Part shown: piece after piece, positions 10,165 to 10,240 of the stretch
How the letters are laid out: each line of letters starts with the position of its first letter
Numbering within the stretch: position 1 is the first letter of the stretch
DNA from: a virus
DNA: 64,000 bases
Virus record (IMG/VR): IMGVR_UViG_3300033067_002067
Span: 9,301-73,300 of that record
Reading direction: 5' to 3' (one strand)
The notes under the pieces: generated by a model
Databases searched by the model: none
The model's input: the letters and a program-made list of their open reading frames with translations, nothing else
What the model was told of the DNA's origin: nothing
Program-made: the position numbers and the translations under genes

Positions 10165-10240
10165 GACTCCAGAGCATGGTTAGAATATGCGGACGTCTCT
10201 AAAACGTTTGATGCGGGGGCAGTTCCCGCTGGGGTCGCCA
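10165..10240 (+). tRNA. tRNA-like gene with amber anticodon CUA (candidate suppressor tRNA or tRNA-mimic)
   Basis: perfect cloverleaf: acceptor gactcca/tggggtc, G73, CCA; D gcat-ggttagaat-atgc; anticodon stem gacgt/acgtt loop ctctaaa; T-stem gcggg/cccgc but T-loop ggcagtt (no T-Psi-C). Confidence 0.5.

Follow-up and report, generated by a model that had tools for sequence, protein, structure and literature searches.

A phage tRNA with an amber anticodon is matched to an in-frame stop codon in the leader of a neighbouring gene, suggesting a translational switch

Organization of the locus

The window analysed here is a 64,000-nucleotide (nt) stretch of viral DNA (positions 9,301 to 73,300 of IMG/VR record IMGVR_UViG_3300033067_002067), in which a tRNA gene with the anticodon CUA is followed by a leader mini-open reading frame (mini-ORF) containing an in-frame TAG and then by the gene for a conserved protein, termed ORF138. 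Comparison across related phages suggests that these elements probably form a three-part cassette, within which the tRNA would be an amber suppressor and would represent the trans-acting half of a switch, namely the inducer of ORF138. The elements of the locus are:

10165..10240, + strand: putative amber suppressor tRNA, 76-nt cloverleaf (ARAGORN; covariation in orthologues)
10248..10253, + strand: leader Shine-Dalgarno (SD) sequence AGGAGA, 6 nt 5' of the ATG and 7 nt 3' of the tRNA CCA (sequence)
10260..10298, + strand: leader mini-ORF MEIVRT-TAG-RYYPP-TAA (sequence; conserved architecture)
10300..10313, + strand: 5' arm GAUUCUUCUUGAAU of a predicted hairpin (anti-SD strand), beginning 2 nt past the leader TAA (minimum free energy (MFE) fold)
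10334..10347, + strand: 3' arm AUUCAAGGAGAAUU of the same hairpin, holding the ORF138 SD AAGGAGA at 10338-10344 (MFE fold)
10352..10768, + strand: ORF138, a conserved, basic, all-helical protein of 138 amino acids (aa), encoded immediately 3' of the leader and hairpin

The AF2 (AlphaFold2) model of ORF138 consists of five helices with a pLDDT (predicted local distance difference test) score of 92, and the N-terminus MSVELKIKSKHL is almost invariant. Homologues are found in metagenomic protein sets (864, none of them named), and no family, structure or publication identified in our function search assigns the protein a role.

Using ORF138 as the query, loci were recovered from IMG/VR, metagenomes and specific contigs and assembled into two non-redundant sets of 73 and 50. 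In most of these loci a CUA tRNA lies upstream of the ORF138 homologue, typically at a spacing of 100-130 nt, and the tRNA genes surrounding the pair change from locus to locus. The pair is also present in two cultured phages, Bacteriophage DSS3_MAL1 and Synechococcus phage BUCT-ZZ01. A scan of genome contigs returned one locus only, on a 156-kb contig within a Robiginitomaculum metagenome-assembled genome that is probably phage. Nucleotide searches of GenBank phages for near and distant relatives returned no relative of the tRNA region, with the Ro60-like gene downstream of ORF138 alone being matched, and the exact 24-nt T-arm/acceptor pattern has zero matches in IMG/VR.

The amber tRNA is supported by covariation

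ARAGORN places the tRNA at exactly 10165-10240 on the + strand, the boundaries drawn in an earlier note on this DNA, with the CUA anticodon at position 35 (10199-10201 of the window), and the MFE fold is likewise a cloverleaf. The acceptor stem GACUCCA/UGGGGUC comprises 7 base pairs (bp) with one wobble, U4.G69; the D-stem GCAU/AUGC closes the 9-nt D-loop GGUUAGAAU; the anticodon stem GACGU/ACGUU comprises 5 bp with one wobble, G27.U43, and closes the loop CUCUAAA; and the T-stem GCGGG/CCCGC closes the T-loop GGCAGUU (10218-10224). The variable loop is 4 nt long, two bases (G8 and A9) link the acceptor and D stems, the discriminator is G73 and the CCA is encoded in the DNA. The earlier note had described the stems as perfectly paired, which applies only if the two G.U wobbles are counted as pairs, whereas its description of the anticodon and anticodon loop, G73, the encoded CCA and the T-loop matches the sequence. 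Overall, the molecule has the architecture of an elongator tRNA, with 7/4/5/5-bp stems, a 7-nt anticodon loop, U33, a purine at position 37 and a 3' CCA.

When 56 distinct orthologues are aligned, 94.9% of the stem cells form pairs and compensatory changes are present in 18 of the 21 pairs; double-change cells number 271, compared with 73 after shuffling and no more than 45 after sliding of the partners. Thus, it is the comparative data, rather than the single sequence, that exclude a chance origin of the cloverleaf, and by this measure the amber tRNA is real. The body of the molecule varies considerably: among 62 distinct suppressors the discriminator is A in 47, G in 12 and U in 3, and the acceptor stems differ widely. 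The tRNAs could not be traced to any one isoacceptor, and the non-suppressor types nearest to them are scattered among Met, Phe, Leu, Thr and others. Such variation in identity elements is expected if the amino acid inserted does not matter.

ARAGORN writes 'tRNA-Pyl' on any CUA tRNA, and the amber tRNA of DSS3_MAL1 is annotated in this way. The pylT architecture comprises a 6-bp anticodon stem, a 3-nt variable loop, a single base linking the acceptor and D stems and a D-loop of ~5 nt. We therefore reject the label for the window tRNA, with its 5-bp anticodon stem, 4-nt variable loop, two linker bases and 9-nt D-loop. No PylS-like domain was found among the window ORFs of at least 250 aa, and inspection of the large window ORFs revealed no dedicated synthetase. 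As a separate observation, locus L089 carries a second suppressor-like tRNA with the anticodon UCA (starting CCTCCGT, loop UUUCAAG) beside the CUA tRNA of its cassette, and its leader terminates in Pro-Pro (PP)-TGA.

The leader stop codon matches the tRNA anticodon

The window leader begins 20 nt downstream of the tRNA and reads ATG GAA ATC GTT CGT ACG TAG CGC TAT TAT CCT CCC TAA, with the in-frame TAG at 10278-10280, the two Pro codons at 10290-10295 and the TAA at 10296-10298. Related loci likewise have an SD ahead of the leader, and the shared design consists of the SD, a start codon, 0-10 codons (usually 5-6), an in-frame stop, 2-6 codons, PP and usually a further stop, as exemplified by MKRYHL-stop-ITRPP-stop, MKEFNS-stop-ITKPP-stop, MEKLVA-stop-IRPP-stop, MKAYFL-stop-VFHPP-stop and TTG-stop-ITKPP-stop. 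This architecture is present in 69/73 and 43/50 loci of the two sets (112/123), compared with 2/660 control gene starts from the same sequences, and the + strand of the window contains a single such leader. The second stop follows PP immediately in 56 of 69 leaders. All four synonymous Pro codons occur at each of the two PP positions, indicating that the constraint on PP acts at the level of the peptide. The nucleotide 3' of the leader stop is A in 44 cases, G in 18, C in 7 and U in none.

A number of leaders depart from this design. The readthrough frame is fused in-frame with ORF138 in L056 and L066, spans the ORF138 start in L040, L045 and L058, and carries a longer tail after PP in L030, L063 and L069. 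In L048 (from 2677) and L065 (from 2695) the leader is replaced by an ORF of ~85 codons that starts ATG TCT TTA TAG or ATG TCG TAG and still closes with APP/VPP-TAA at the ORF138 hairpin; the small protein encoded there could be makeable solely through amber readthrough. The variants thereby preserve the same predicted switch logic.

Wherever both leader stop and tRNA anticodon are detected in the two sets of loci they agree, with zero mismatched combinations. TAG leaders pair with CUA tRNAs in 62 and 31 loci, and TGA leaders pair with UCA tRNAs in L092 (ML-TGA-VYAPP-TAA) and L174 (M-TGA-VCKPP-TAG). In the lineage L019-21, the tRNA (3793-3870 in L019) has an 8-nt anticodon loop, CUUUCAAU, with the anticodon UUCA, and the leader directly downstream reads ATG AAC AGG TTC TGG TGAA TGT AGA GGA CCC CCG TAG. 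Here, TGAA stands where other leaders have TAG, and only four-base decoding of UGAA restores CRGPP-stop, making this tRNA and leader a candidate natural quadruplet-decoding pair with the predicted product MNRFW-X-CRGPP-stop. That the leader stop and the anticodon change together is the best evidence for decoding of the leader by the tRNA. The suggestion in the earlier note that the tRNA could be a suppressor is borne out insofar as the molecule appears to be a reader of UAG whose apparent purpose is readthrough, and is refined insofar as the target would be the in-frame stop of the one leader at 10260-10298, rather than codons scattered through the phage genes.

Is TAG recoded throughout the phage?

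An alternative explanation for the CUA anticodon is that the tRNA is a general recoding suppressor, with TAG reassigned in some genes, for example late ones, and with the leader being an accessory sensor or a coincidence. PMC10879173 and PMC9523058 describe phages that reassign UAG by means of suppressor tRNAs. TAG ends only 4/103 crude ORFs in the window although the TAG/TAA trinucleotide ratio of the + strand is 0.54, and the window covers only part of the phage genome. This deficit, well below the trinucleotide frequency, is also compatible with readthrough avoidance. Against general recoding, merging ORFs with TAG read as sense, the scan that the earlier note had called for, yields no convincing readthrough gene or gene pair in the 64-kb window; rather, it returns chance or antisense merges and one adjacent pair, 20083-20535 and 20545-20748, which are two genes each with its own SD. 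The readthrough potential lies instead in the leader. The large window ORFs match domains over their full length under the standard code. The complete DSS3_MAL1 genome uses TAG as the terminator of annotated genes, among them tail genes and pth, and its long ORFs are intact; this genome has 60% GC, at which our greedy ORF caller is unreliable, and its TAG usage is therefore taken from the annotated coding-sequence ends that the caller reproduced. Compared with code-15-like recoding, the stop-complementary anticodon is present, and in-frame TAG was not found within genes in either the window or the DSS3_MAL1 genome. In addition, the varied acceptor stems and discriminators, with no single isoacceptor likeness, are hard to fit to one amino acid inserted across a proteome. 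We consider general recoding quite unlikely, and favour the leader TAG as the target of the tRNA.

In the adjacent pair mentioned above, the first gene stops at TAG and the ATG of the second (20545) is in-frame three codons on, such that suppression would fuse the two proteins. This in-frame juxtaposition (20533-20547) is probably coincidence, although the first gene belongs to the mere four window ORFs that terminate with TAG.

A predicted hairpin sequesters the ORF138 SD

All 62 loci with a PP-stop leader have an MFE fold in which the ORF138 SD is base-paired to a stretch whose start falls -10 to +2 nt relative to the last position of the leader stop, with unrelated stem sequences in different lineages. 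When normalised to shuffled sequences, the hairpin has a z of -2.55 in the cassettes compared with -0.70 at other SD-bearing gene starts (p=5e-23), and the longest SD-containing helix has a median length of 9 bp compared with 6 bp at control gene starts (p=2e-14). The window hairpin is not an intrinsic terminator, since a U-tract is missing.

The position of the hairpin relative to the leader was evaluated using coordinates from the sequence and a ribosome footprint size from established knowledge. When the P site holds the second Pro codon, the mRNA entry channel extends to ~10304-10308, and the nucleotides that pair with the SD core (10304-10307) are covered, whereas the channel of a ribosome whose A site is occupied by the leader TAG extends only to ~10290.

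Proposed mechanism of the switch

Taken together, the comparative support for the cassette comprises conservation of the three parts, the match between stop and anticodon, selection on the PP peptide, the predicted SD hairpin, purifying selection on the tRNA and an apparently compensated T-loop (see below). On this basis we regard the following sequence of events as the likely one. The tRNA and the leader probably share one transcript, since the leader SD starts 7 nt after the CCA. Ribosomes would initiate on the leader, translate MEIVRT and encounter UAG at codon 7. Should RF1 win, termination would occur ~20 nt before the hairpin, the ORF138 SD would stay paired and ORF138 would not be translated. 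Should charged tRNA(CUA) win, the ribosome would translate five further codons (RYYPP) and arrive at Pro-Pro-UAA. Pro-Pro followed by a stop codon is a context of slow peptide-bond formation and slow release. A ribosome pausing at this site would cover the first half of the hairpin 5' arm, thereby freeing the SD and enabling translation of ORF138. The output of ORF138 would then be a readout of phage suppressor activity relative to host termination, and might serve as a timer or sensor. Why ORF138 should be gated in this way is a matter of speculation, for which a timer, feedback on suppression or a sensor of host termination can be envisaged.

Several points weigh against this mechanism. At the level of the tRNA, the z-score of the single-sequence fold is modest (-1.65), and the Rfam model RF00005 has no match to the window tRNA at the gathering threshold and is silent even at E<=10 in a 3-kb scan; covariance scoring is therefore divided, with RF00005 missing the window copy and the 56 orthologues providing strong covariation for the cloverleaf. 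At the level of the hairpin, the raw folding energy of the 65 nt upstream of ORF138 is not below that of other gene starts, and the excess is visible only in the shuffle-normalised z and in helix length. At the level of the family, the TGA/UCA match comprises two loci only and the TGAA/UUCA match one lineage only, 17 loci have a leader TAG with the suppressor tRNA not found within the 1.5-4 kb examined, and L010 carries ORF138 with neither tRNA nor leader. Moreover, we infer from sequence the expression and charging of the tRNA, readthrough of the leader, stalling at PP-stop, co-transcription of tRNA and leader and an activating, rather than repressing, effect of stalling on ORF138; PP-stop might in principle provoke mRNA cleavage or tmRNA (transfer-messenger RNA) action instead of activation.

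The same parts could also be arranged such that the tRNA is constant and the cassette senses the translation status of the host, namely RF1, EF-P or charging capacity. Readthrough depends on the ratio of tRNA to RF1, and translation of PP depends on EF-P. Phages of this group carry a tmRNA, which is annotated in DSS3_MAL1 too, and DSS3_MAL1 additionally has pth and a CCA-adding enzyme, so that quality control of translation is something these phages invest in. The sequence data do not tell the limiting variable apart. That tRNA and leader are so closely linked points to a part for the tRNA itself, and we regard host-status sensing as unlikely.

A stronger form of the model in which the tRNA is the inducer would be that it has no role in decoding the proteome and is instead a dedicated regulatory RNA, whose sole substrate is the stop codon of the adjacent leader, the whole forming a self-contained switch or timer. 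We put this forward tentatively, as a possibility that falls somewhat short of an even chance. The identity of the amino acid inserted at UAG may be irrelevant, in which case the tRNA body would be free to drift, and such drift would explain the varied acceptor stems and discriminators as well as, in one clade, a rebuilt T-loop/D-loop elbow. The lineage L019-21 would then run the same switch by natural quadruplet decoding, reading UGAA with an 8-nt anticodon loop.

The non-canonical T-loop appears to be compensated in the D-loop

The GGCAGUU T-loop is limited to the window, L022, L023/24 and L025/26, whereas in every other suppressor of the two sets (62 and 38 distinct) the T-loop is UUCRANY or UUUGANY. 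RF00005 detects orthologues with canonical loops (66.1 bits for L003 and 51.6 bits for L008) and, at the gathering threshold, has no match to the GGCAGUU copies of L022 and L025. The bases of the window tRNA at the elbow differ from the canonical set, with G54-G55-C56-A57-G58 in the T-loop and A18-G19 in the D-loop, compared with U54-U55-C56-R57-A58 and G18-G19.

The earlier note had cautioned that a tRNA with such a T-loop may not work in translation, which conflicts with the conservation of the molecule. The tRNA, including the T-loop, is 96-99% identical in L022, L023 and L025, whereas identity in the flanking coding DNA falls to 61-78% in L023 and L025, and the T-stem of L022 bears a compensatory change of C50-G64 to U-A. 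This pattern indicates that the GGCAGUU tRNA is under strong purifying selection and not decaying. Among 779 distinct tRNAs of these phages, positions 18:55, 19:56 and 54:58 covary: all 10 of the 10 distinct tRNAs with G55 have an A18-G19 ('UAG') D-loop and not G18-G19, so that A18 accompanies G55 in every other G55 tRNA as well, and tRNAs with U56 carry G18-A19. The combination of G54 and G58 recurs in a tRNA-His, and the occurrence of G8 goes together with that of G14. The window tRNA (G8, G14, A18, G19, G54, G55, C56, G58) matches these patterns of tertiary covariation, from which we infer that its elbow still forms. The change in the T-loop thus looks compensated in the D-loop, with A18 accompanying G55. 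Since the tRNA of this clade is apparently still used by the ribosome with G54-G55...G58 and A18, it may inform on how much change the elbow tolerates.

A loop similar to GGCAGUU is found elsewhere in the window:

46657-47063, + strand: permuted (two-piece, alphaproteobacterial-type) tmRNA (Rfam tmRNA_permuted 86.5 bits, alpha_tmRNA 63.2 bits)

The T-loop of this tmRNA is GGCAGUA, and the Rfam alphaproteobacterial tmRNA consensus is GGCgGUA. tmRNA binds EF-Tu and enters the ribosomal A site, suggesting that a loop much like that of the amber tRNA already serves an RNA with these properties. Further non-canonical T-loops are present in the same phage, in tRNA-Gly-GCC (1218-1291), tRNA-Gln (3405-3478), tRNA-His (4049-4122) and tRNA-Ile-GAU (5305-5378); they read AUCGUUA or AUCGAUA (A54 with U58 or A58) or AGCGUUA (G55 with A18 in the D-loop).

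The odd T-loop, together with G8 and G14 and the lack of an Rfam match, could be taken to indicate that the element decays or acts outside translation, as a pseudogene, a decoy for anticodon nucleases or a Ro60-like/Y-RNA module, the more so as a Y-RNA-type module (10933-10993) and a Ro60-like gene lie within 1.1 kb. We consider this very improbable. Apart from the retention of the tRNA and its compensated stem while the neighbours diverged, and from covarying D-loop and T-loop changes of the kind seen in the other phage tRNAs, each of the four tRNAs in the odd-T-loop clade still has its leader TAG, and a decoy role leaves the matching of stop and anticodon unexplained. Of 109 loci for which flanks were examined, only 18 have the Ro60-like gene close to the cassette, on either side, whereas the spacing of tRNA, leader and ORF138 is fixed, which also speaks against the proposal in the earlier note that the tRNA is one module of a Ro60-associated RNA set.

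Relationship to known regulatory systems

The proposed switch most closely resembles, in mechanism, translational attenuation of the cat/erm type and, in overall design, synthetic switches with TAG placed in tna or trp leaders. In cat/cmlA and ermC, a ribosome stalled by antibiotic within the leader frees the downstream SD. The phage cassette shares with them a short upstream ORF preceded by an SD, and a predicted hairpin that holds the SD and has its 5' arm within the footprint of the paused ribosome. The inducer of cat/cmlA and ermC is an antibiotic, whereas the pause site of the cassette would be reachable only by suppressor readthrough and the motif is Pro-Pro-stop. In prfB, an early in-frame UGA senses termination efficiency and is escaped by +1 frameshifting rather than by a suppressor tRNA, and in tnaC, peptidyl-Pro at the stop codon is released slowly, in a manner that requires free tryptophan and controls Rho termination. 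The cassette resembles these systems in using an early in-frame stop as a termination sensor and in having Pro at a stop, where release is slow.

In the synthetic switches, as described in PMC6412442, translation past a UAG in tna or trp leaders by a suppressor turns on the downstream gene; these leaders act on transcription through masking of the rut site and need an orthogonal synthetase, whereas the phage cassette is natural and, given the SD hairpin, apparently translational. Suppressors of crAss-like, Lak and other gut phages, according to PMC10879173 and PMC9523058, similarly comprise a phage CUA (or UCA) tRNA that competes with host release factors. In contrast to the code-reassigning phages, the sole conserved target here is one leader codon, and the identity elements are not conserved. 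We found no description of a natural example of such a cassette in the full-text literature, the coverage of which is incomplete, such that an earlier description is possible.

Phage tRNAs are usually assigned roles in assisting codon usage, in replacing tRNAs that host defences have cleaved or, in the case of suppressors, in whole-genome recoding. If correct, our model would add a fourth role, that of a gene-specific regulator, and would provide a natural counterpart of engineered amber leader switches as well as an in vivo readout of suppressor versus release factor. A widespread group of tRNA-rich aquatic phages would then carry a natural 'orthogonal translation' switch or timer. The cassette also draws attention to the uncharacterised ORF138 family, with at least 864 members, as one that phages appear to gate elaborately. 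The model is directly testable, since DSS3_MAL1, whose host Ruegeria pomeroyi DSS-3 is tractable, carries the cassette, with the tRNA at 13412-13485, the leader MKS-TAG-IRPPP-TGA and the ORF138 homologue at 13599-13946.

Neighbouring elements

The window comes from a large phage rich in tRNA genes, with no close relative among GenBank phages. It contains 25 tRNAs called by ARAGORN in addition to the permuted tmRNA, and encodes a T4-like gp32, RNase H, PhoH and genes for NAD salvage. The ORF upstream of the amber tRNA (9711-10076) has no relatives in IMG/VR. Downstream of ORF138 lie:

10933-10993, + strand: tRNA-like module (Rfam tRNA model positions 6-65 only, 49 bits; ARAGORN silent)
11280-12722: Ro60-like gene (DUF2828/DUF7788; domain match)

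The tRNA-like module recurs in L022 (2026-2086) and L025 (1420-1480) and lies ~290 nt upstream of the Ro60-like gene; the two resemble a YrlA-type Y RNA and the protein that partners it.

A dispersed element of the form TTAGGAT-N5-CAGCAA ... AAAGCAAA ... ATCCTG is present in the window at 10082-10152 and 10772-10897 (+) and in many copies in related loci, scattered over the tRNA regions of these phages, with a closing stem that covaries (GGATGC/GCATCC, GGATCA/TGATCC, GGATCG/CGATCC). We considered and rejected this GGAT-N5-CAGCAA element as a part of the cassette, as it lies at most 160 nt upstream of the suppressor in 11/62 loci and is scattered otherwise. Within the tRNA region, a gene for a GIY-YIG/NUMOD3 homing endonuclease (8732-9256, +; PHROG 314, E=7e-41) suggests mobile-element traffic among the tRNA genes, and a tRNA-Ile with the anticodon UAU (2491-2583, +) has 93 nt and a long extra arm, which is unusual for a tRNA-Ile.

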